Sequence record: OZ346221.1
Strand: one strand, 5' to 3'
DNA from: a phage
Length of the DNA stretch: 45,229 nucleotides
A model generated the notes under the pieces. The model searched no databases, had not been told where the DNA came from, and saw only the letters and a list, made by a program, of their open reading frames with translations. Of this stretch, positions 10,807 through 40,798 are shown piece by piece (within the stretch, counting starts at the first letter, position 1; each line of letters opens with the position of its first letter). Position numbers and translations under genes: made by a program.

Positions 10807-10810
10807 TGCA

Positions 10811-10964
10811 GCGGGACAGATCGGGACGTCCCGTTTTGTCCCACCCCTGAAATGTGCATACCTATTCGAATTTATTGCATAAACTAAGCGGGACAGATCG
10901 GGACGTCCCGTTTTGTCCCACCCCTGAAATGTGCATACCTATTCGAATTTATTGCATAAACTAA
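10811..10964. repeat. 77-bp direct tandem repeat (2 units) containing the palindrome GGGACGTCCC
   Basis: Two adjacent near-identical units beginning GCGGGACAGATCGGGACGTCCCGTTTTGTCCC and ending TTATTGCATAAACTAA. Confidence 0.8.
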
Positions 10965-11121
10965 GCGGGACAAAAAGCGGGACAAACAAGGGGCGGGACA
11001 AAGCGGGACAGCACCCCGTCCCCACCAGTGCTGCCGCGGGGTTTAGCCGATCGGGACAGCGGGACAGCACCCCAGTCTTTCAGACTAGACGGGGGTCAGT
11101 GGCCCCCCTCGTCTGAGACTG
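10958..11121. repeat. iteron element copy A (six GCGGGACA-type direct repeats plus a GC-rich hairpin)
   Basis: CTAAGCGGGACAAAAAGCGGGACAAACAAGGGGCGGGACAAAGCGGGACAGCACC...CGGGACAGCGGGACAGCACCCCAG...GACGGGGGTCAGTGGCCCCCCTCGTC; flanks identical to the copy at 40113..40276. Confidence 0.75.
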
Positions 11122-11188
11122 AATAAGGATTGTTTTAAAATCGCTGATACAATGACAATCGGCAACTGCATAAAAAGGGGACTGCATA

Positions 11189-13831
11189 ATGGCAGATCAA
11201 GCGGCAGGCATCACGCTGAAGGCTGATGTTGCACAAATCAGAACGGCAAATACTGTGCTGGACTCCTTCGCACAGAAATCCGAGAACACAGAAAACAAGG
11301 TTAAGAAATTAAACGACACCCTCGGCAAATCCAAAAAGGTGACGAGTGACGCCGCGGGCGGAATGGAGAAGCTGGCGACTGAATCGCAGCGCGCCGCCGA
11401 TGGCATGACGAAACAGGAGCGACTTGCCAACAGGTTAGGCATGTCGACCAAAAACCTGGGCTTTGCCTCGCGTAACGCCGCATTCCAGTTACAGGATATC
11501 GCTGTAACGCTTGAGATGGGTATGCCGGTGCACCGCGTCATGCTTCAGCAGTTACCGCAGTTAACTGGGGCGTTCGGTGGATTGGGTAACACGCTGCGTT
11601 TTGTTGCTGGCTTCCTCGGTCCGGTAGGGACCGGCATTGCAGCACTAACGGCAACGTTAGGCGTAGGGGTGGCAATTACGTCCCGCGCGGAGAACCAGGT
11701 CGCCGCGCTTAACAAGACGCTGGCACTTTCCGGTAACATTTCCGGCCTGACGGCAAACCAGATCCTGGTGCTATCCGAGAACGCCGAGCGCATGGGCGGG
11801 TCGTTCCGCAAGACGCGTGACACAATCCAGGCGCTGGCGGCGGCGGGTGTGAAAGCGGGGGGTGACTTCGGCGCACTGGCGAAGGTAGTGAATGACTTCG
11901 CGAAGGTGTCCAGCCAGCCGATCGAGGATGTGGTCGCGGCGGTGGCGAAGCTGTCAACCGACCCCGTTGGCGGACTGCGTGCGCTGGCGGATAAGTATCA
12001 CGTCGTAAACGAAGCGCAGATCCAGCAGGTACAGTCGCTCGTTGATGCGGGTCGTGAGACAGACGCAGTTGCGTTGGCTAACAAAACAGCCGCTGCGTCG
12101 TTCACCAGCATGACCAATGAAATCAAGTCCAACATGGGTACGCTTGAGCGGTCGATGAACGTCGTCACATCGGCAGCCAAATCAATGTGGGACGCCATCC
12201 TGGATGTGGGCCGCGCGCAGTCCTCCAATGAATCCGAGATGAAAGCGCGTGAGTCATTGCAGCGACTAACCACGGCTTACTATGCCGAGATGAAAGCGGT
12301 AAACGCTGCCGGTGGGGTAATGACTGAAGCGCAGAAAGCGCGTATTAACATGCTTTACAGCGAACTGGTCGCCCAGGAGAAAGTAGTGGCGTCGCTCACC
12401 CTGCGCAACCGTGCGGAGCGGGACAACGCCAGCGCCGCGGACGAAGCAGCAAAGGCGAACGAGGAGGCCAACCGCACCGCCCGCGACCGCGCCGCGTTTG
12501 AGAAGGAGTACGCAACCAACGCGAAGAGGCGCGCCGACGAGATCGCCCGCCTCAATTTGCTGAATAAGCGCGGCGTGATTGACGAGAAAGAGCTTGCCGA
12601 GGCGGTGAAGCAGGTAAACGAGCGTTACAAAGACCCCGCCCCGAAGAAGGCCGCGGCTGTTCGCGTGGATGCCGGTATGAAAATGCTGGAAGTTGCACGG
12701 AGCGAACTGGCCCAGCTTCGAGAATCCGGCAAGCAGATCGAAGCCAACGCGTCTACGCAGACCCGCACGCAACGCGCTCAAGCGGCCCTAAACAAGCTGA
12801 TCGCGGATAATGAACAGTTAATCGCAGCAAGCAAAGAAAGAGCACTAACGGCAGCAGAAAAGCAGCAGATGGTCGAATTCGGACGCGTGAAGGAAGTACG
12901 CGAGCAGATCGTCGAAGAAGCCAAATTGCTGGACGCGAAAGAGAAGCAGGTCAAGGCGCACGCGCAGATCGACGCCTTCGTCAAGAACCAGAACGCCGAG
13001 CTAAAAGCCACCGCGGCGGGCTATGCGCTTTCCACTCGCGAAGCGGCTAACCTGCGCGAAGAATTGCAGCTAATTGACCGCCTTAAGCGGGTGGGCGCTA
13101 GCGATACCGATATTGATCTGGCGGTGTCTAAACTGCGCGAAGTGCAGGAAGCACAGACCGGTGCTAACGCCTCGCTATGGGATGGATTCAGCCGCGGGCT
13201 TAAGGATAGCGTGGATGAAATGGGTAACGGCTATACGCAGATGACGTCACTCACAAAATTCACGTTCGGCGCTATGCAGGACACGATGAACGAGTTTTTC
13301 GAGACTGGCAAGCTGAACGCAAAGGATATGGTTAAGTCCATCCTGAGCGAATTAATCAAGCTGGCTACATCGCAAGCATTCAAGTCCATCGTTAGCGCTT
13401 TCGGTGGCGACGGCGGCAAAAACGGATTGTTCGGCGCTATCTTCTCCGGCCTCACTAAGAATGCGGACGGCGGAGCGTACGCAGGAGGCAATCTCGCTGC
13501 CTATTCGGGGAAAGTGGTAAGCCAGCCTACCTTTTTCAGTTATGGCGTCCAGGCGTTCGCTAAAGGCGCTGGATTGATGGGTGAGGCCGGACCCGAGGCC
13601 ATCATGCCACTGAAGCGCGGGCCTGACGGTAAGCTGGGCGTTGCCGCTGCCGGTGTTGGGGGTGGGATGATTGTAACGACCAACGTGAACATGGGGACCG
13701 GTAAGACGGATGCCAGTGTGAGCGGGCCGGACCCACGCACCGCGCAGGCGTTCGGAAAGCAAATCACCGAGGCGGTCAAGGCCGAGATCGTGAAAGCGAC
13801 GAAACCGGGTGGTGTACTTTACAAACGATGA
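11189..13831 (+). CDS. tail tape measure protein
   Basis: 880 aa, long Ala/Gln/Glu-rich helical protein between the chaperone pair and the tail tip genes. Confidence 0.8.
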   Translation: MADQAAGITLKADVAQIRTANTVLDSFAQKSENTENKVKKLNDTLGKSKKVTSDAAGGMEKLATESQRAADGMTKQERLANRLGMSTKNLGFASRNAAFQLQDIAVTLEMGMPVHRVMLQQLPQLTGAFGGLGNTLRFVAGFLGPVGTGIAALTATLGVGVAITSRAENQVAALNKTLALSGNISGLTANQILVLSENAERMGGSFRKTRDTIQALAAAGVKAGGDFGALAKVVNDFAKVSSQPIEDVVAAVAKLSTDPVGGLRALADKYHVVNEAQIQQVQSLVDAGRETDAVALANKTAAASFTSMTNEIKSNMGTLERSMNVVTSAAKSMWDAILDVGRAQSSNESEMKARESLQRLTTAYYAEMKAVNAAGGVMTEAQKARINMLYSELVAQEKVVASLTLRNRAERDNASAADEAAKANEEANRTARDRAAFEKEYATNAKRRADEIARLNLLNKRGVIDEKELAEAVKQVNERYKDPAPKKAAAVRVDAGMKMLEVARSELAQLRESGKQIEANASTQTRTQRAQAALNKLIADNEQLIAASKERALTAAEKQQMVEFGRVKEVREQIVEEAKLLDAKEKQVKAHAQIDAFVKNQNAELKATAAGYALSTREAANLREELQLIDRLKRVGASDTDIDLAVSKLREVQEAQTGANASLWDGFSRGLKDSVDEMGNGYTQMTSLTKFTFGAMQDTMNEFFETGKLNAKDMVKSILSELIKLATSQAFKSIVSAFGGDGGKNGLFGAIFSGLTKNADGGAYAGGNLAAYSGKVVSQPTFFSYGVQAFAKGAGLMGEAGPEAIMPLKRGPDGKLGVAAAGVGGGMIVTTNVNMGTGKTDASVSGPDPRTAQAFGKQITEAVKAEIVKATKPGGVLYKR

Positions 13832-21350: not shown

Positions 21351-22919
21351 ATGGCAGCGGGTACGCTATCCGTAACGAACAATAGCAAGGCGGTAGTAGG
21401 GGTCGGCACAACGTTTACCGCGTTTAAAGCTGGCGACTTCTTAACGCTGGTGGTAGGGCAAGTTCCTTACACCGTGGCGATCGCATCAATCAAAAGTAAC
21501 ACGGCGCTTACGCTGGTGCTGCCGTTCGACGGCCCGACGGCAACCGGCCTAGCCTGGGACGGCATCAAACGTGACACCATGTCATTGACTACGATGGGCG
21601 TTACCGTCCAGGCACAGAAAGCATTTCGTTTGATGATCGCCGATGAAAACAACTGGCGTGCAATCTTCGGCGACGCTGAAGAAATCACCGTAACGCTGCC
21701 GAACGGGCAAGTCATGCAGGGTATGTCATGGGGCTATCTGTCGCAGTTGATGAAACAGATCGACCCAGTGGAAATGCGCGACCTGCAACAACAAGCCGCC
21801 GCATCGGAAGCAGCCGCGCAAGGATTTCGCAATGAGGCAGAAGGCTTCAAGACCGAGACGGCGGGTATTCGCGACGCCACCAATACCATCAAGACGCAGA
21901 CGAACCAGATCAAAACTGATACGCAGGCCATCAAGACGCAGACGAACCAGATCAAGACGGATACGCAGGCCATCAAGACGCAGACGAACCAGATCAAGAC
22001 GGATACGCAGGCCATCAAGACGCAGACGAACCAGATCAAGACTGACACCGGCGTTATTCGAGATCAGGCCAATACAGCGAAGAGGGACGCGCAAGCCGCC
22101 CGCGATGCCGCGCAGGGGTATCGGGACGAAGCCGAAGACTTCAAAAACGCGATCGACCCTACGCAATTCATGAAGAAGTCGCAGAACCTGGCAGACGTCG
22201 CAGATAAATCGGCGGCACGCGCTAATCTTGGCGTTGGTGATGATAGTATCGTTAAACACGCAACATTACGTCTGAACGGAGGCGAATCGCTAACCTTCAA
22301 TGATGTCGAAAGAAACGGTTTGATTATATCAAACGCGTCTTTCGGGATGGATAGCTGGGTCGGGCAGACGATGCATAAGTGGTACACGGATTGGACACGA
22401 TCTGGCTTGGTCAGGGGCGGCGATGCCCACTTATCGGACTACCGTGTCCACGTGTGGAAGGATGGTTATACGGAGGCTTTATTCCGCTTCCTACCGGACG
22501 GCAGGCTGATTAGTGGTAACAGCAGCAACCCTTCGGTTAACGAGTTCCAGAAAGCGGCGCTATCGGACCGCGACCTTAAAAAAGAAATCCAATACACTGA
22601 CGGCGAGGAAAGCTACAACCGCGTTCGTCAATGGCTTCCGGCAATGTTCAAGTATAAGGAGTCTGACGTACAGCGATACGGCCTTATCGCACAGGATCTG
22701 GCAAGGATTGACCCAGAATATGTGCACTTGCTGCCGGGTTATGCCATTTATGAGGATATCAAGGGGGTGGACGAGGAAGGCAACGAAGTTGTAGTCGACC
22801 GAAAGGAAATCGGGTATACGGACGATGTGCTGTCACTAGATAGTAACGTGCTGTTGATGGATCTGTGTGCCGCCTTCGTTCACCTGTTGCGGAAAGTGGA
22901 AAAGCTGGAAGGTAAATAA
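21351..22919 (+). CDS. tail fibre protein with C-terminal S74-type intramolecular chaperone domain
   Basis: 522 aa from internal ATG with GAGGA RBS; C-terminal SDRDLKKEI...YGLIAQDL signature; 14-aa tandem repeats AIKTQTNQIKTDTQ in the shaft. Confidence 0.75.
   Translation: MAAGTLSVTNNSKAVVGVGTTFTAFKAGDFLTLVVGQVPYTVAIASIKSNTALTLVLPFDGPTATGLAWDGIKRDTMSLTTMGVTVQAQKAFRLMIADENNWRAIFGDAEEITVTLPNGQVMQGMSWGYLSQLMKQIDPVEMRDLQQQAAASEAAAQGFRNEAEGFKTETAGIRDATNTIKTQTNQIKTDTQAIKTQTNQIKTDTQAIKTQTNQIKTDTQAIKTQTNQIKTDTGVIRDQANTAKRDAQAARDAAQGYRDEAEDFKNAIDPTQFMKKSQNLADVADKSAARANLGVGDDSIVKHATLRLNGGESLTFNDVERNGLIISNASFGMDSWVGQTMHKWYTDWTRSGLVRGGDAHLSDYRVHVWKDGYTEALFRFLPDGRLISGNSSNPSVNEFQKAALSDRDLKKEIQYTDGEESYNRVRQWLPAMFKYKESDVQRYGLIAQDLARIDPEYVHLLPGYAIYEDIKGVDEEGNEVVVDRKEIGYTDDVLSLDSNVLLMDLCAAFVHLLRKVEKLEGK
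21885..22049 (+). repeat. 42-bp in-frame tandem repeat (about 3.9 units) inside the tail-fibre gene
   Basis: GCCATCAAGACGCAGACGAACCAGATCAAGACGGATACGCAG repeated; units 2 and 3 identical, units 1 and 4 slightly different. Confidence 0.8.
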
Positions 22920-32058: not shown

Positions 32059-32787
32059 TTAACGGCGGCGACGTTTGCGTGGTGCTTCGTCTTCGTCGTC
32101 TTCGTCCTCATCTTCGTCATCGCGGGACTTGCGGCGTTTGCGAGGTTTTTCATCTTCCTCATCGTCGTCATCGCGGCGCTTGGATTTCTTGGACTTGCGC
32201 GGTGCTTCGTCTTCGTCGTCGTTGTCCAGGTCTTCATCGGAGCAAGAAGACCCGCCACCGCCGAAGGCTTCACCGTCATCACGGAAGCGTAAACCCAGCA
32301 AGCCAGCACCGAGTCCCTTGCCGTTGGTGTTGTTCCACGCCCAGATATCAAGGGACACGTTGCAATAACAACCGGAGTAGATCTCCTGGCCTTCGATCTC
32401 GTCGCCTTCTACGGTCAGACCCTGTTCGGTCTGCTTCTCGCCGAGTGACGTTTGAATGTTTGGCTGTTTGAACGATTTAGCGTTGATGTACAACATGCCT
32501 TCGAATTCTTCGGATACTTCGTCGCGCTCGTCACCGTCACGAACTGCGCATTCCTTCGAATCCTGGGCGTAGTGGCGGTCCATCCACTTATCGGCATTCT
32601 TCTCGGATTTCAGCTTGTCGGTGAGCACTGCGCGCGCTGCCGCTTCCACTTTGTCCACCTGCGGATCTTCTTTATCCAGAAGAATCACGGCACGGTATGC
32701 CGGTTTTTGTCCATCCTGTTTAGGGGTGTCACGTTCCCAAATTTTCAGGAAGCATACGCGCACATTTTTCAGGTTGACTTTAGCCAT
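32059..32787 (-). CDS. T7 gp2.5-like single-stranded DNA-binding protein with mixed-charge C-terminal tail
   Basis: 242 aa from internal ATG (MAKVNLKNVRVCF...) with GAGGAA RBS; YCNVSLDIWAWNNTNGKGLGAGLLGLRF...FGGGG parallels the gp2.5 C-terminal core; tail alternates Asp/Glu and Lys/Arg clusters. Confidence 0.7.
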   Translation of the reverse strand: MAKVNLKNVRVCFLKIWERDTPKQDGQKPAYRAVILLDKEDPQVDKVEAAARAVLTDKLKSEKNADKWMDRHYAQDSKECAVRDGDERDEVSEEFEGMLYINAKSFKQPNIQTSLGEKQTEQGLTVEGDEIEGQEIYSGCYCNVSLDIWAWNNTNGKGLGAGLLGLRFRDDGEAFGGGGSSCSDEDLDNDDEDEAPRKSKKSKRRDDDDEEDEKPRKRRKSRDDEDEDEDDEDEAPRKRRRR

Positions 32788-35020: not shown

Positions 35021-35527
35021 TTAATCTTCCAGTTCGAAATAGGTTTCGACGATTTCTTTTAACTCTGTGTGGAAGTCTTCGACGTCGTCATCTTCCAGCT
35101 TGGCGATTGATTTGATCTCGAACGACTCCAGCAGGTCGTCGAATTCGTCGTTCGCATCGTCGTCATCACCACCGGCGATAATCGCGGCATACTGTTTGAT
35201 TTCGTCGCGCATCTCCGCCAGCGGATCAGCATCTTTCTTACCTTTGCCGTTCGCCGGTGCTTTTTTAGCCTTAGCCGGTTTTTCGTCTTCGGCGTCTTCG
35301 TCGTCATCTTCTACGACTTCTTTTTTGGCCTTACCTTTCGCCGGTGCTTTTTTAGCTTTAGCCGGTTTTTCGTCTTCGGCGGCATCGTCGTCATCTTCTT
35401 TTTTGGCCTTAGACGGCTTCTTGTCTTCCTGCTTACCAACGGCAGCGCCAACAGTTTCATAATGCTTTGCGATGGTTTCCAGTGCTACTACGCCGCGAGT
35501 GATCAGGTTTACGATTTGCTCAAACAT
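35021..35527 (-). CDS. acidic low-complexity protein, first gene of the leftward early operon
   Basis: 168 aa from internal ATG (MFEQIVNL...) with GGAGAT RBS; two KPAKAKKAPA-type units and a strongly acidic C-terminal third. Confidence 0.5.
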   Translation of the reverse strand: MFEQIVNLITRGVVALETIAKHYETVGAAVGKQEDKKPSKAKKEDDDDAAEDEKPAKAKKAPAKGKAKKEVVEDDDEDAEDEKPAKAKKAPANGKGKKDADPLAEMRDEIKQYAAIIAGGDDDDANDEFDDLLESFEIKSIAKLEDDDVEDFHTELKEIVETYFELED

Positions 35528-35928: not shown

Positions 35929-36258
35929 ATGAATATTGACGACGCAATCGAAATGTTAACTAAGACTGTTTGCAGTGAGACAAGCCGGTCCTGGGCATAT
36001 ACCGATGCCGTGGGTGCGGTGCTATTTGAGATCGAACGTCTGCGACTTACCGAAAAAGAATTGCGCGCGAAGCTGGAATTACTCAACGGTACGGCAGCAA
36101 GCAAGCTGCAAAAGCACAATGAGGAAATGGAAGAATACAAAAAACAGGTTATCCGTTTGCGCGATGAGGGGAAGTCATGGGCAATGATCGCGGAGTTGAC
36201 AGGAATTAACCAAAGCACCGTGCGCTCTTGGGTACGCAATAACAAAACTTCGAAGTAA
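35929..36258 (+). CDS. HTH DNA-binding protein, putative early regulator
   Basis: 109 aa; coiled-coil middle and C-terminal helix-turn-helix-like GKSWAMIAELTGINQSTVRSWV. Confidence 0.5.
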   Translation: MNIDDAIEMLTKTVCSETSRSWAYTDAVGAVLFEIERLRLTEKELRAKLELLNGTAASKLQKHNEEMEEYKKQVIRLRDEGKSWAMIAELTGINQSTVRSWVRNNKTSK

Positions 36259-36268
36259 GGCAACGGCA

Positions 36269-38533
36269 ATGAGCTTAATTAAATTCGCTGTAACAAGACC
36301 CGCTAAAAAAGGCGAAAAAGCCAGGGCGGAAAACTTCCAGATGACAACTGATGAATTTTTCGAATTTATCAATGATGCGAAAGAAATATCATCAGTGCAT
36401 ATCAACAAGACCGAGGATAAAGCCGAGTATGCGCGCCGCAAGCGCAAGGCCGATGGCATCGTGGCATATACCAGTGACGGCCTACGCCGTAAGACCAGCG
36501 CGGTGGACCGCTCGATCCTGTTCTTTGATATCGACCGTACCGACACTCGCACCTTGCGCCGCTGCCGTAAGGCTTTCATCGATGCGGGGCTGGAGCACGT
36601 ATTCCATACAACAACCGGCGACCGCCACCCGCTGAAAGGCGGCACGCGTTGCGCACGTTTCCTTGTGCTCACAGACAAGCCCGTACCGGCGGAAGACCTG
36701 GGCCGCGTCCAGTACGCGCTGTTAGACCAACTGGGCCTGTCTGATGTGGACTTCGACGATTGCACCAAAGACACAAACCGCCTGATGTACCTACCACACC
36801 AGCAGTCTGTCATTAAGTGCCACTACGGAAAGCGCGCCAGTGTGCGTCGTCTGCTTCGCCGGGCTGACAGGCTGGGAGTGGAGAAAGAGGAAGTACGCCG
36901 CGAGCTTACCCAGGGCGACGACGCAGTGGCTGACGGCATTCTGGACTGGTGCTTCCAAGCAGGATTCGAGGAGTTATCCTCCGGTCGCGGTTATGAAGTG
37001 CCGTGCCCGAACGAACATCTGCACAGCGGCGAAGGGTCGACGGCTATTATAGTCAAGGATGGCGAGATCCGTTTCAAGTGTATGCACACCGGCAACGAGT
37101 GTTGCTCTGAGCTGAACAGACACCAGCACCTGGCGCTACGTCTTATCGGGATACCGGACCACCTGAACGTCGAGCCGCACAACATGTCACGTAAGCAAAT
37201 CGCCGCCATCCTCCCAGGGCTGGACGACGAGGAAGTCGAATCCTTATATGAACATATTGTTGATGCGGTTGGCGACGGCGAAGAATACGGCGTGTGCACC
37301 GATGCGGATCTGGATAACGAGCCGGTTGCGCTGTTCAGTAAGCACGACCCGATTATCGAGGGGTTGATTAACTTTAAATCGACCTGGTACATGGCGGGTG
37401 AGTCGAATATCGGTAAGTCTTTCTACGTGCTGGGCCAGATGGGCGCGGTTGCCGCGGGTATTCCGTTTGGTGGCGCGAAGGTCGTCCAGTCTCATTGCTT
37501 CTATTTCGACGCGGAAGGTGGCGAAGCCTCCAACCAGCGTAAAGAAGCATTGCAGATTAAATATGAGCACGACCTGGACAAGCTGCACATTATCGATCTG
37601 CAGTCACGCGGCTGGGATATCACCAGCAAATCGGGCTTGCGCGAAGTTATCAGCTTTATCAACCGCACCGCTAACGGCGAACCGGTTGGCCTGGTGGCGT
37701 TCGACTCACTAAACCAGACTGTTGCGTTGCGGTCCGCCGAGGCTAAACCGTTCGACGAGAACAACGCCAGCGATATGGGTGAAGTGGTCAAAGCGCTGAA
37801 GGCCATCGCGGAAAATACAGGTGGCAGTGCGGGCGTCATCCACCACCCGGCTAAAGGTGCAAACGGCAGCAGAACGCCACGCGGGTCCGGCGCGCTGCAT
37901 GGTGCTGTCGATTCTGCGTTCTTCCTGGAACAGCCGGACGACAACCAGCCCGGACAATTGAACCTGTATCACGAAAAGTCACGTAACGGCATCAAGCAAG
38001 CGCCGCGCGGCTTCGTCCTGCTCAAGTGCAAGGTGAAGGTGGATCTCCGCAAGTCAGAAGCGTTCGAGGCGCACCAGTCCACCAGCACCGGGCCAGACTT
38101 CGGCGACGTGGTTGCCGGATGGGACGTCAAGCCGATTGCCTCCACGCCACGCGACGAGACTCTCTACCTCGTACCGGTTGCCCTGGCACCGTTCGCTATT
38201 GAACAGGCGAAGGCGGCGGGCAAGGCCGCGGTTAAGGAAGAGAACACCGCCGGACCGCGCAACGAAAAAGAGAAAGTGCTTTATGCGGCACTGGAAAAAC
38301 TGATGGAAGATAACCCGTACCATACTGGATTCAGTAAATCGGCAATTGTCCGCCAGGCGGGACTCGCAAAAGGTGGCACTTCGACGAAGGCAATCGACGA
38401 TATGGTGGAGCGCGGGGTAATAGGTTTTTATACAGATCCGCACACCGGGGCCATCTATGGGTCTTCTAATTTGGTCATCAAATCGGATATCCCTATCACG
38501 CTTTCCGCGACCGATGACGATTTAAAAGATTAA
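36269..38533 (+). CDS. primase-helicase (zinc-binding primase-type N-terminal region, RecA-like ATPase, C-terminal winged-helix-like domain)
   Basis: 754 aa; Cys/His cluster CPNEHLHSGEG...CMHTGNECC; Walker A MAGESNIGKS; VAFDSLNQ; C-terminal GFSKSAIVRQAGL...AIDDMVERGVIGF. Confidence 0.75.
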   Translation: MSLIKFAVTRPAKKGEKARAENFQMTTDEFFEFINDAKEISSVHINKTEDKAEYARRKRKADGIVAYTSDGLRRKTSAVDRSILFFDIDRTDTRTLRRCRKAFIDAGLEHVFHTTTGDRHPLKGGTRCARFLVLTDKPVPAEDLGRVQYALLDQLGLSDVDFDDCTKDTNRLMYLPHQQSVIKCHYGKRASVRRLLRRADRLGVEKEEVRRELTQGDDAVADGILDWCFQAGFEELSSGRGYEVPCPNEHLHSGEGSTAIIVKDGEIRFKCMHTGNECCSELNRHQHLALRLIGIPDHLNVEPHNMSRKQIAAILPGLDDEEVESLYEHIVDAVGDGEEYGVCTDADLDNEPVALFSKHDPIIEGLINFKSTWYMAGESNIGKSFYVLGQMGAVAAGIPFGGAKVVQSHCFYFDAEGGEASNQRKEALQIKYEHDLDKLHIIDLQSRGWDITSKSGLREVISFINRTANGEPVGLVAFDSLNQTVALRSAEAKPFDENNASDMGEVVKALKAIAENTGGSAGVIHHPAKGANGSRTPRGSGALHGAVDSAFFLEQPDDNQPGQLNLYHEKSRNGIKQAPRGFVLLKCKVKVDLRKSEAFEAHQSTSTGPDFGDVVAGWDVKPIASTPRDETLYLVPVALAPFAIEQAKAAGKAAVKEENTAGPRNEKEKVLYAALEKLMEDNPYHTGFSKSAIVRQAGLAKGGTSTKAIDDMVERGVIGFYTDPHTGAIYGSSNLVIKSDIPITLSATDDDLKD

Positions 38534-38708
38534 ATTCTGCGCGCATTGGTTGCCGATATGGTAATTCCCATATCGGTGAATGATTAAATTTTGCGCGCAT
38601 TGGTTGCCATTTTGAGTGTTTTTACCTGGTCGTATTGGTTGCCGTGTAGTGTAAATATAGTGAATAGTTATGCAATAAAACTGCATAAAGTAAGCGGACA
38701 GAAAGCAC
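37229..38708 (+). repeat. tandem duplication unit, copy 1 (3' half of primase-helicase gene plus downstream non-coding DNA)
   Basis: Near-identical to 38709..40188 with scattered substitutions; unit about 1480 bp; junction next to GTAAGCGGACAGAAAGC (approximate coordinates). Confidence 0.8.
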
Positions 38709-40188
38709 GAGGAAGTCGAATCCTTATATGAACATATTGTTGATGCGGTTGGCGACGGCGAAGAATACGGCGTGTGCACCGATGCGGATCTGGATAACGA
38801 GCCGGTTGCGCTGTTCAGTAAGCACGACCCGATCATCGAGGGGTTGATTAACTTTAAATCGACCTGGTACATGGCGGGTGAGTCGAACATCGGTAAATCG
38901 TTCTACGTGCTGGGGCAGATGGGTGCGGTTGCCGCGGGTATCCCGTTTGGCGGTGCGAAGGTCGTCCAGTCCCATTGCTTCTATTTCGACGCGGAAGGTG
39001 GCGAAGCCTCCAACCAGCGTAAGGAAGCATTGCAGATCAAATACGAGCACGACCTGGACAAGCTGCACATTATTGACCTGCAATCACGCGGCTGGGATAT
39101 CACCAGCAAGTCGGGCTTGCGCGAAGTTATCAGCTTTATCAACCGCACCGCTAACGGCGAACCGGTTGGCCTGGTGGCGTTCGACTCACTCAACCAGACT
39201 GTTGCGCTGCGGTCCGCCGATGCTAAACCGTTCGACGAGAACAACGCCAGCGATATGGGCGAAGTGGTCAAGGCGCTGAAGGCCATTGCGGAAAATACAG
39301 GCGGCAGTGCGGGCGTCATCCACCACCCGGCTAAAGGTGCAAACGGCAGCAGAACGCCTCGCGGGTCCGGCGCGCTTCATGGTGCTGTCGATTCCGCGTT
39401 CTTCCTGGAACAACCGGACGACAACCAGCCCGGACAATTGAACCTGTATCACGAAAAGGCGCGTAACGGCATCAAGCAAGCGCCGCGCGGATTCGTCCTG
39501 CTTAAGTGCAAAGTTAAGGTAGATCTCCGCAAGTCCGAAGCGTTCGAAGCCCACCAGTCCACCAGCGCCGGGCCAGACTTCGGCGATGTGGTTGCCGGTT
39601 GGGACGTCAAGCCGATCGCATCCACGCCACGCGACGAGACTCTTTACCTCGTACCGGTCGCCCTGGCACCGTTCGCCATCGAACAGGCGAAGGCCGCTGG
39701 CAAAGCCGCAGTTAAGGAAGAAAACGCCGCCGTACCGCGCAACGAAAAAGAGAAAGTGCTTTATGCGGCACTGGAAAAACTGATGGAAGATAACCCGGAC
39801 CATACCGGATTCAGTAAATCGGCAATTGTCCGCCAGGCTGGGCTTGCGAAAGGTGGCACATCGACGAAGGCAATCGACGATATGGTCGAGCGCGGCGTGC
39901 TCGGTTTTTATACCGATCCGCACACCGGGGCCATCTACGGGTCGTCGAATATTGTCATTAAAACGAGTATACCCATCACGCTTTCTGCGACCGATGATGA
40001 TTTAAAAGATTAAATGTTGCGCGCATTGGTTGCCATTTCGAGTGTTTTTAGCTGGTCGCATTGGTTGCCGTGTAGTGTAAATATATTGAATAGTTATGCA
40101 ATAAAACTGCATAAACTAAGCGGGACAAAAAGCGGGACAAACAAGGGGCGGGACAAAGCGGGACAGCACCCCGTCCCGCCCCCGGATG
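38709..40188 (+). repeat. tandem duplication unit, copy 2
   Basis: Second copy of the 3' half of the primase-helicase gene, followed by the complete iteron element (approximate coordinates). Confidence 0.8.
38772..40013 (+). CDS. stand-alone paralogue of the primase-helicase C-terminal half (ATPase plus winged-helix-like domain)
   Basis: 413-aa ORF with GTG start and no obvious RBS; about ten amino-acid differences from the parent, most nucleotide differences synonymous; may be an untranslated remnant. Confidence 0.45.
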   Translation: MCTDADLDNEPVALFSKHDPIIEGLINFKSTWYMAGESNIGKSFYVLGQMGAVAAGIPFGGAKVVQSHCFYFDAEGGEASNQRKEALQIKYEHDLDKLHIIDLQSRGWDITSKSGLREVISFINRTANGEPVGLVAFDSLNQTVALRSADAKPFDENNASDMGEVVKALKAIAENTGGSAGVIHHPAKGANGSRTPRGSGALHGAVDSAFFLEQPDDNQPGQLNLYHEKARNGIKQAPRGFVLLKCKVKVDLRKSEAFEAHQSTSAGPDFGDVVAGWDVKPIASTPRDETLYLVPVALAPFAIEQAKAAGKAAVKEENAAVPRNEKEKVLYAALEKLMEDNPDHTGFSKSAIVRQAGLAKGGTSTKAIDDMVERGVLGFYTDPHTGAIYGSSNIVIKTSIPITLSATDDDLKD

Positions 40189-40276
40189 ACGCGGCCTGGC
40201 GGGGAGCGGGACAGCGGGACAGCACCCCAGTCTTTCAGACTAGACGGGGGTCAGTGGCCCCCCTCGTCTGAGACTG
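40113..40276. repeat. iteron element copy B (candidate replication origin)
   Basis: Six GCGGGACA-type repeats plus the same GC-rich hairpin as copy A; directly downstream of the primase-helicase region; followed by an AT-rich stretch with TGCGGNTTG repeats. Confidence 0.75.
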
Positions 40277-40435
40277 CATAAAATCCTGGATTGCAAAATA
40301 CACGGCAGCATGTTGCGGATTGCGGTCGTCGCGGAACTAGGCAACCAATGCGGGTTGTATTATGTTGAGTGAAAAATGCGGTTTGCAGTCTCAGCAGATA
40401 GCGATCAACTTTTTCATGCGCGTGATTAATATTGG

Positions 40436-40464
40436 TTGCATCCGGCCTGGCACCTTGCTATATT
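40436..40464 (+). promoter_or_regulatory. sigma70-like promoter with ATTGGTTGCA motifs, for the 40493 gene
   Basis: TTGCAT, 17-nt spacer, TATATT, then leader GGTTGCACACCAACATGAGGA before the ATG (approximate coordinates). Confidence 0.45.
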
Positions 40465-40492
40465 GGTTGCACACCAACATGAGGACTGAACA

Positions 40493-40798
40493 ATGAAAGC
40501 AATTATCTGGAATTACACCCTGGCCGTGGCAAAGCTGGAAGAAGCGAAAGCACTGAACGGCAACGTAGACCAGGCGCTGCAGATTGCGGTACTGGCGCAC
40601 CAATCAATTCGTGACGCGCTCTACCGCATGGACGCCAGCCTGGATGACCTGAAGCCGTTGCGTATGGCAATTCACGAATATGCCAAGGCATTTGCCCGTG
40701 AGCGCCTGGCGTATCGCTTCGGGATCGGTGAGACGGCAGTGACAAACGTCGCCCGGATTAAAGCCCAGCGCGAACTATTCGCCCAGCTTGCGAAATAA
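40493..40798 (+). CDS. hypothetical protein
   Basis: 101 aa with GAGGA RBS and the conserved promoter/leader element upstream. Confidence 0.5.
   Translation: MKAIIWNYTLAVAKLEEAKALNGNVDQALQIAVLAHQSIRDALYRMDASLDDLKPLRMAIHEYAKAFARERLAYRFGIGETAVTNVARIKAQRELFAQLAK

Follow-up and report, generated by a model that had tools for sequence, protein, structure and literature searches.

Paired iteron modules of a Dhillonvirus genome as candidate replication elements, probably recognised by the phage primase-helicase

The repeat element beside the primase-helicase gene

The stretch of DNA analysed here (45,229 bp, sequence record OZ346221.1, hereafter the window) is the complete, circularly permuted genome of a Dhillonvirus, an SO-1/HK578-like virulent siphophage of E. 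coli. The element in question, region B, is an array of short repeats (iterons) with a hairpin, lying downstream of the gene for a primase-helicase of 754 codons, and an earlier reading of the same DNA (the sequence-only reading) had proposed it as a candidate replication origin. The present analysis establishes the anatomy of this element, its conservation, its linkage to the helicase gene, the change of its motif from one helicase lineage to another, and the modelled folds of the two terminal domains of the protein. It also brings to light a second, near-identical module, region A, which lies ~29 kb from region B and had been overlooked. The comparisons suggest that regions A and B are cis-acting replication elements and that their iteron arrays are probably recognised by the phage's own primase-helicase. 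Region B is made up as follows:

40014-40492, + strand: region B as a whole, with its core at 40113-40282
40014-40112, + strand: AT-rich leader of 99 bp, 39% GC, with two CGCATTGGTTGCC sites, ending in TGCATAAACTAAG
40113-40282, + strand: core, 65% GC, with six direct CGGGACA heptamers, one inverted GTCCCGC and the conserved hairpin module
40121, 40133, 40149, 40159, 40207 and 40215, + strand: the CGGGACA heptamers
40120, 40132, 40148, 40158, 40206 and 40214, + strand: the GCGGGACA copies
40173: the inverted GTCCCGC
40228-40276, + strand: palindromic module of 49 nt, CAGTCTTTCAGACTAGACGGGGGTCAGTGGCCCCCCTCGTCTGAGACTG, which holds the hairpin GACGGGGGTCAGTGGCCCCCCTCGTC predicted by folding
40283-40492, + strand: distal part, with an inverted GGCAACCAATGCG, two AATGCGG(G/T)TTG and two ATATTGGTTGCA just upstream of the gene at 40493

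The six direct repeats and the GC-rich hairpin that had been described at this locus are borne out, the former as six copies of GCGGGACA at 40120-40214 and the latter as GACGGGGGTCAGTGGCCCCCCTCGTC; with the inverted copy, the cluster occupies 102 bp. The element had also been placed just downstream of the primase-helicase, which is correct in so far as it starts 100 bp past a stop codon at 40013, but the open reading frame (ORF) that ends there is a duplicated 3' copy of the gene, of 413 codons (see below). The stretch that follows the core (40283-40492) had been called AT-rich; at 48% GC it is only mildly so, and the truly AT-rich DNA is the upstream leader (40014-40112, 39% GC versus ~55% for the genome). 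The repeats reported in the downstream stretch, on the other hand, are real, namely the two AATGCGG(G/T)TTG copies.

The AT-rich leader is a candidate unwinding element. A comparable AT-rich stretch lies before the iterons of region A, and TGCATAAACTAAG, which abuts the first iteron of region B, precedes those of region A as well. The distal part is probably promoter or regulatory DNA, not part of an origin core; its length differs among relatives, in which region B spans 479-656 bp. A further short sequence, ACTGCATAA(A), stands on both sides of the region B core (40106-40115 and 40273-40282) and is found again at 38680 and at 11165 and 11181, the last two being just before the start codon of the tape-measure gene and after region A; it could be the edge of the duplicated module or the site of another protein.

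A second copy of the module in the tail operon

The window holds 15 copies of GCGGGACA, compared with 2.3 +/- 1.3 expected, and this number was reached in 0 of 100 shuffles. Nine of the 15 lie outside region B, and seven of these form an array at 10811-11066, which contains the second copy of the module:

~10807-11188, + strand: region A, between the tail-chaperone gene (end 10806) and the tape-measure gene (11189-13831)
10810-10963, + strand: a unit of 77 bp present twice in perfect tandem, preceding the region A core
10964-11126, + strand: region A core, the second copy of the module
10966, 10978, 10994, 11004, 11052 and 11060, + strand: CGGGACA heptamers of the region A core
11018: inverted GTCCC within the region A core
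11073-11121, + strand: hairpin module, the same as in region B

The copy of the region B module in region A extends over 195 nt and is 87% identical overall. Identity is 100% over the four-iteron block and again over the last two iterons together with the hairpin, with the differences between the two cores confined to ~30 central bases, and the 49-nt palindromic module is the same in both regions (exact copy at 11073). Both copies also share sharp boundaries (TGCATAAACTAAG ... GAGACTG[C/A]ATAA). Each of the 77-bp units upstream of the region A core holds CGGGACA, CGGGAC, GTCCCG and TGTCCC, which are additional direct and inverted sites.

The invariant core of the repeat is the heptamer CGGGACA, the base preceding it being variable among the 30 module cores that were aligned (see below). 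In the window this heptamer occurs 19 times on the + strand and 0 times on the - strand; five solitary copies lie outside both arrays, at 12419, 14861, 15929, 17875 and 28643. Protein-coding readings of the element were rejected, as an 85-codon ORF at 40014-40271 is broken or in another frame in phages Ioannina, LM40P1 and YD-2008.s, and in region A the same DNA has other reading frames around it. Searches for tRNA, tmRNA and known RNA families found none.

Conservation within Dhillonvirus

Stretches around the element, used as queries, find 159 phage records (identity 80-95%), of which nearly all are named as Escherichia or Shigella phages of the genus Dhillonvirus. The module is present in 159 of 159 Dhillonvirus records, nearly always at two places; the sequence-only reading had pointed to arrays beside primase-helicase genes of related phages as a check, and they are found throughout the genus and also far outside it. 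For a closer comparison, 30 cores (15 from region A and 15 from region B) from ~17 genomes were aligned. Invariant columns make up 36 of 42 in the motifs versus 29 of 74 in the spacers, the iteron spacing of 12-16-10-48-8(9) is kept in all 30 cores, and the 49-nt hairpin module is almost invariant, with its G5/C5 stem kept and its loop varying across genomes.

Regions A and B are more alike within genomes (identity 0.846) than between genomes (0.811; permutation p = 0.0002). Since equal values would be expected had the two copies been independent since their duplication, A and B appear to evolve in concert, either through gene conversion or through shared adaptation.

The repeats themselves are already known, having been flagged in GenBank in 2009. 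The record of phage SO-1 (GQ502199 / NC_013600) marks both loci as repeat 'region A' (11214-11597, between gp16 and the tape-measure gene) and 'region B' (40178-40657, after the helicase/primase gene), which are the same loci as regions A and B of the window, and describes them as 'direct, inverted and palindromic repeat sequences; sequence similarity with region A/B'. This entry is annotation only, and no paper analysing regions A and B of SO-1 was found.

The primase-helicase and its gene

The protein encoded beside region B combines several predicted domains in one chain, and its gene is preceded by that of a small helix-turn-helix (HTH) protein:

36269-38533, + strand: primase-helicase gene, 754 codons, intact
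residues ~1-205: AEP/PrimPol-like primase domain, a fold match by structure prediction
residues ~245-280: Cys/His cluster
residues 357-531: AAA_25 RepA-like helicase (PF13481, E 2.4e-19)
between helicase and winged helix: linker with PRDETLYLVPVALAPF
residues ~665-740: winged helix, by structure prediction
C-terminal end: acidic tail DDDLKD
35929-36258, + strand: gene of the small HTH protein, 109 residues, HTH_23 / sigma-70 region 4-like, just upstream of the primase-helicase gene

AAA_25 is the sole Pfam domain found in the 754-residue protein, whose PHROGs family bears the name 'replicative helicase-primase'. The N-terminal domain is predicted to have an AEP/PrimPol fold, with matches that include RSF1010 RepB', and the nearest sequence of solved structure is RSF1010 RepA, a non-significant match. 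A winged helix had been suspected at the C-terminus, and the predicted structure of the C-terminal domain agrees; a homologue search with the C-terminal 160 residues alone returned one trivial match.

Two further features emerge from an alignment of the family. The linker between helicase and winged helix contains an invariant motif, PRDETL(Y/V)L(V/I)PVAL-PF, and an acidic tail, D-[ED]-D-L-x-D, is conserved family-wide after the winged helix (38480-38530 in the window). The acidic C-termini of T7 gp4 and gp2.5 tether both proteins to the polymerase, and the tail of the primase-helicase resembles them.

Linkage of arrays to helicase genes beyond the genus

A scan of IMG/VR for two GCGGGACA within 8 nt yielded at least 120 loci, among which at least 55 have four or more copies within 400 bp. 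Starting from the window protein, an iterated hidden Markov model search picked out at least 28 non-Dhillonvirus loci with a homologue of the AAA_25 helicase, and in about two dozen of these the CGGGACA array begins at or just past the 3' end of the helicase gene. The distant arrays consist of heptamer blocks in both orientations, often with a GC palindrome flanked by inverted heptamers.

As this first set had been chosen through the motif, a motif-independent control was run, in which an alignment of five proteins of a related helicase family retrieved 80 loci by protein alone; 79 of them were scored. CGGGACA occurs 2.18 times per locus in the first 100 bp past the stop codon and 1.47 times in the second, versus ~0.02 per 100 bp elsewhere, an enrichment of ~100-fold over the 200 bp. 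Where enough downstream DNA was available, 36 of 76 loci carry at least three copies past the stop, mostly 7-12. In most loci that lack CGGGACA, the same position is occupied by 4-11 copies of a different heptamer, of more than 10 kinds that track the protein lineage (CCGGACA, CGTGACA, CCGCACA, CGTAACA, CGCAACA and TGCAACA; further GGGGACA, CCAGACA, TCCGACA, ACGGACA, AACGGTG and AGGTATG). Segments of the tails that look like recognition helices vary along with the repeats: KKAFxRA is found with CGGGACA or CCGGACA, KRVTWKRTK with CGTAACA, and KRATWARTK with CGCAACA. In a crude pairwise test, a shared motif is predicted by the identity of the last 100 residues with an area under the curve of 0.71, versus 0.62 for helicase-core identity, which weakly suggests that the choice of motif belongs to the tail rather than to the core.

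Full-length homologues of the window protein repeat this arrangement (identities are to the window protein):

L226, 68% identity: CGGGACA array and the same hairpin directly past the stop codon
L227, 49% identity: TCGCAA in both orientations directly past the stop codon
L230, 47% identity: TCGCAA(T) directly past the stop codon
L228 (Jerseyvirus FSL SP-031), 44% identity: GGGGAGA seven times, with inverted copies, directly past the stop codon

In L227, a second, distal TCGCAA array lies ~10 kb from the proximal one, and a module of 44 bp is common to both (95% identity). The layout with two sites is thus found again, built on another motif. The distal array (22101-22281) follows a MuF-like head gene, a genome position different from that of Dhillonvirus region A, and may run further, the L227 locus ending at 22301.

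The motif-independent control and the change of motif along protein lineages support, at the level of sequence, the proposal of a candidate replication origin, and the testable parts of the earlier interpretation are all supported by these comparisons.

Comparison with characterised initiators

The Rep proteins of the pathogenicity islands of Staphylococcus aureus (SaPIs) are self-loading initiator-helicases, the C-terminal winged helix of which binds 6-12 iterons immediately downstream of rep, as experiments have demonstrated (PMC9371898). A design of this kind is described for the P4 alpha protein too and has been proposed for ORF904 of pRN1 (PMC2777425, PMC4234260). The SaPI repeats measure 5-6 nt, their specificity differs by lineage, no loader is used, and one of the proteins, PriRep5, is also a primase (PMC9371898). 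The window has the same geometry of gene and then array, with repeats of 7 nt, six plus one in number, and a modelled C-terminal winged helix. The differences are nevertheless considerable: the SaPI ATPase is of the AAA+ superfamily 3 (SF3)/MCM type, whereas that of the window is a RecA-type AAA_25, RepA-like; SaPI origins have an AT-rich centre, whereas the AT-rich part in the window is at the edge; and a satellite island with one origin is being compared with a virulent coliphage, of another host, with two modules.

The sequence-only reading had likened the geometry of the locus to that of the P4-type alpha proteins, a likeness that extends to the winged helix and the two iteron sites but not to the other domains, which are AEP and superfamily 4 (SF4)/RepA-like instead of Toprim and SF3. 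In P4, ori and crr (the 'cis required region for replication') reportedly carry the same octamer iterons, bound by alpha, and crr is said to adjoin the alpha gene and to contain ~120-bp direct repeats. The P4 iteron is TGTTCACC, unlike the CGGGACA of the window. Alpha joins primase, helicase and a C-terminal winged-helix origin-binding domain in one chain (PMC2777425), and P4 requires crr as a second cis site besides ori (10.64898/2026.03.30.715334). Region B beside the gene and region A with its 77-bp tandem units 29 kb away mirror this ori/crr layout: there are again two putative cis sites with the same iterons, both of them maintained across the genus, and L227 has a similar pair built on another motif. 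The existence of region A thus makes the analogy stronger. The enzymes themselves are of different kinds, alpha having a DnaG/Toprim primase and an SF3 helicase and the window protein an AEP primase and an SF4-like AAA_25 helicase; neither a Toprim/DnaG-type primase nor an SF3 (D5_N/DUF5906) domain was detected in the latter, whereas the P4-like protein of locus L083 (see below) scores all three in the same Pfam library.

The catalytic folds of the window protein are those of the trio RepB', RepA and RepC of the IncQ plasmid RSF1010. In RSF1010, however, the RepB' primase, the RepA helicase and the iteron-binding initiator RepC are separate proteins and the iterons are of 20 bp, whereas in the window the functions are apparently fused and the repeats are of 7 nt. 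The oriV of RSF1010 combines iterons with hairpin priming sites, and by this analogy one might speculate that the conserved hairpin of regions A and B serves as a priming or loading signal.

In ORF904 of plasmid pRN1, an AEP primase/polymerase, a helicase and a C-terminal winged helix are likewise found in one protein (PMC2777425), the replication gene has an essential origin region on its 3' side (PMC4234260), and the gene of a small DNA-binding protein lies upstream in the same operon (PMC2777425, PMC4234260). The window shares this chain of AEP, helicase and winged helix, the 3' position of the putative origin region and the upstream gene of a small DNA-binding protein. Unlike the window, pRN1 has an SF3 helicase and an archaeal host, and no iterons were found in it (PMC2777425).

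A proposed role in replication

We infer that the winged helix reads the repeats and that replication is initiated at region A or B. In such a scheme, the C-terminal winged helix of the 754-residue protein would bind the CGGGACA heptamers, and the gathering of several subunits on an array would, by analogy, allow the RepA-like AAA_25 helicase to assemble itself on the DNA beside the AT-rich leader or the GC palindrome, with no separate initiator or loader, as is the case for SaPI Rep and P4 alpha. The N-terminal AEP primase would make the first primer, possibly and more speculatively on the extruded hairpin, in the manner of RSF1010 RepB' on ssi, and the acidic tail, the phage Pol A and a gp2.5-like single-strand-binding protein may, judging from the gene content, complete a T7-like replisome. 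Both arrays would bind the same protein and could be either two origins or an origin and a distant helper site, like ori and crr of P4.

No paper was found on the origin of a Dhillonvirus, nor on GCGGGACA or CGGGACA in a phage context. What is new here is the evidence, of a comparative kind, that the repeats are probably the cognate sites of the primase-helicase; the set of AEP primase, RecA-type helicase and winged helix, which is unlike every characterised self-loading initiator found; and the size of the metagenomic class in which the recognition words can be read directly past the gene.

Several observations weigh against initiation at these arrays by the primase-helicase. The minimum of the cumulative GC skew lies near 35-36 kb, in a divergent promoter region, and not at 40.1 kb, although the skew in this genome follows gene orientation and is therefore a weak, uninformative locator of an origin. 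Region A lies within the late tail operon, an odd location for an origin. In the window, nearly all iterons point the same way and stand at irregular intervals, whereas SaPI origins are built of opposed blocks around an AT-rich centre. Throughout the full-length family, a small HTH gene is found ahead of the helicase gene, and it, too, changes with the motif. Finally, no sequence similarity was detected between the Dhillonvirus winged helix and the tail of the metagenomic CGGGACA family (jackhmmer; hhalign probability 6%), even though MAFFT aligns the putative recognition helices of the two; as one heptamer goes with apparently unrelated tails, the reader could be something else, for instance a different domain or a host factor.

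Alternative explanations

The arrays could be linked to replication and yet be read by another protein, either the small HTH protein (35929-36258) or a host factor, which we consider unlikely. The HTH protein would then be an origin-binding initiator or a regulator of copy number or expression, comparable with RepC of RSF1010 or ORF56 of pRN1. Its gene immediately precedes that of the helicase in the window, an HTH gene occupies the same place in L226, L227, L228 and L230, and the Pfam family of the HTH protein shifts with the motif, being HTH_23 / sigma-70 region 4 with CGGGACA and HTH_3 with TCGCAA and GGGGAGA. The occurrence of CGGGACA beside undetectably related helicase tails, an SF3 P4-like protein and a DUF1376 protein also fits a reader other than the tail. 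In the large metagenomic (L069-type) family, however, the genes ahead of the helicase vary and no HTH gene recurs among them, and the helicase is the only constant neighbour of the array (by crude ORF calls); the identity of the tail is, moreover, a better predictor of a shared motif than that of the core. For an HTH protein resembling a transcription factor, ATTGGTTGC, with 19 exact copies that are mostly paired and intergenic, is a better candidate target, and in the SaPI and P4 precedents the reader is the C-terminus of the helicase (PMC9371898, PMC2777425). Two explanations without any role in initiation fare less well. Transcriptional or RNA elements of the + strand units (a structured RNA, an attenuator, or signals for antitermination or processing) that set expression ratios, with an incidental link to the helicase, would place module B at the early/late boundary and module A inside the tail operon. 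Both modules do fall between genes of + strand operons and on the strand that is transcribed; CGGGACA is confined to the + strand in the window; the modules contain stable hairpins with stems kept and loops variable; and dosage control is plausible between the tail-chaperone and tape-measure genes. We nevertheless regard this explanation as quite improbable, as neither module contains a terminator-like site on the + strand of the kind expected for an intrinsic terminator (the stem-plus-T-run matches in the modules are on the - strand only and are formed by inverted iterons), Rfam gave 0 matches at the gathering score and, up to E 1, only a chance snoRNA match (E 0.37), and the folding energy is ordinary (z = -1.1 as DNA and -1.8 as RNA). 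Furthermore, distant phages carry heptamers in both orientations within one array, which fits double-stranded DNA sites and not an RNA signal, and neither the tight link to helicase 3' ends nor the lineage-wise change of motif over hundreds of loci would be expected of an RNA element.

A selfish or recombination-prone repeat (a miniature inverted-repeat transposable element, a homing element or a hotspot), copied to two places and without a role in initiation, would account for the two copies with sharp shared boundaries, for the presence of ACTGCATAAA on both sides of region B, for the signs of gene conversion between A and B, for the breakpoint of a 1480-bp duplication inside the array (see below), and for the different position of the distal array between genera. 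It is highly improbable all the same: essentially all of the 159 genomes have two copies, always at these two positions, searches of 5,426 E. coli genomes and of the plasmids in PLSDB gave no match to the module, the heptamers are conserved under selection while the spacers drift, and the type of heptamer changes in step with the lineage of the neighbouring helicase, which is not how a selfish repeat behaves.

CGGGACA beside unrelated initiators

Arrays of CGGGACA adjoin not only the AEP, AAA_25 and winged-helix protein of the Dhillonviruses and AAA_25 helicases with a different, KKAFxRA-bearing tail. In the IMG/VR locus L083 (1598-4238), such an array begins 25 bp past the stop codon of a P4-alpha-type gene with Toprim_3, D5_N and DUF5906 domains, the product of which is unrelated to the window protein; in L099 (3878-6153) one lies directly past an ORF of 669 residues without a Pfam match; and in L101 (2598-3770) one lies inside the ORF of a DUF1376 O-like protein. 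The P4-like element of L083 was considered as an E. coli satellite and rejected, there being no match in E. coli genomes.

A heptamer shared among unrelated initiators possibly reflects convergence, exchange of modules, a common host factor or origin mimicry. The bolder proposal, which we hold to be doubtful, is that CGGGACA is a shared, 'public' origin word with a common reader, be it a host factor or some conserved feature of DNA structure, or else the outcome of mimicry or piracy, in which phages and satellites would take over one another's iterons so as to capture the initiator of a rival, and that, at the same time, SF4/RepA-type helicases with their own winged helix form a large class of self-loading initiator-primase-helicases in phages.

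Significance

Dhillonviruses are common virulent coliphages that are used in phage-defence research (SECphi18, SECphi4 and Bas14-18 of the BASEL collection) and in therapy-oriented work. A defined origin with a matching initiator would ease the reading of marker-frequency and defence-escape data and would permit minimal replicons and the engineering of these phages. A very large metagenomic class of primase-helicases would also gain a tractable model in E. coli; the recognition 'code' of this class, NNNNACA-type heptamers directly past the gene, can be read off the sequence. If the primase-helicase acts as proposed, its fused AEP, RepA-like and winged-helix architecture would extend the idea of the self-loading initiator-helicase from the SF3/MCM-type enzymes (SaPI, P4, pRN1) to a RecA-type, SF4-like one, and the two-site layout would provide a second system, besides ori and crr of P4, for action at a distance in phage replication.

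The tandem duplication and other features of the genome

The reading frame that ends beside region B results from a tandem duplication of 1480 bp (37227-40186), by which the last 413 codons of the primase-helicase gene and the start of region B occur twice, with ~94% DNA identity:

38534-38705, + strand: truncated first copy of region B, with the AT-rich leader and three ATTGGTTGC sites, then TAAGCGGACAGAAAGC
38772-40013, + strand: duplicated 3' part of the primase-helicase gene, 413 codons, encoding helicase and winged helix, ~94% DNA identity to the first copy

The junction (38696-38706, TAAGCGGACAGAAAGC|ACGAGGAAGTCGAATCC) lies within the first two iterons, which it connects, with almost no microhomology, to sequence from the middle of the gene. 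It is spanned by 0 of 156 related records, the duplication being unique to the genome of the window. As the two copies diverge as much as separate phage lineages do, the duplication either arose by recombination during a mixed infection or is a chimera of the assembly; the position of the breakpoint exactly within the array hints at a replication-linked rearrangement.

The motif ATTGGTTGC is the second over-represented one in the window, where 33 sites have at most one mismatch versus 13 expected. Its sites, some of them on both flanks of region B and just upstream of the gene at 40493, include the following:

5241/5254, 21326, 24088, 25992/26009 and 35731: ATTGGTTGC sites before the primase-helicase gene
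38545/38599/38634, 40025/40060/40341/40431/40462 and 40996: ATTGGTTGC sites after it

This motif is probably a phage promoter or regulator site and a natural target of the HTH protein encoded at 35929-36258. The related locus L226 also has TTGGTTGC beside its array.

The gene order of the window is that of SO-1 and Ioannina. The packaging, head and tail genes come first, on the + strand, and are followed by a leftward block of genes for replication and nucleotide metabolism; a rightward block then comprises the small HTH gene, the primase-helicase gene, a long gap, small genes and the lysis genes. Members of the genus, which has been called understudied, package their DNA by the headful mechanism (PMC9022532). 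Two other sets of repeats are unrelated to the element: tandem repeats with a period of 21/42 nt in a tail-fibre-like gene (21844-22090), and acidic (Asp/Glu-rich) repeats in two genes of the replication block on the - strand (32075-32238 and 35232-35401).

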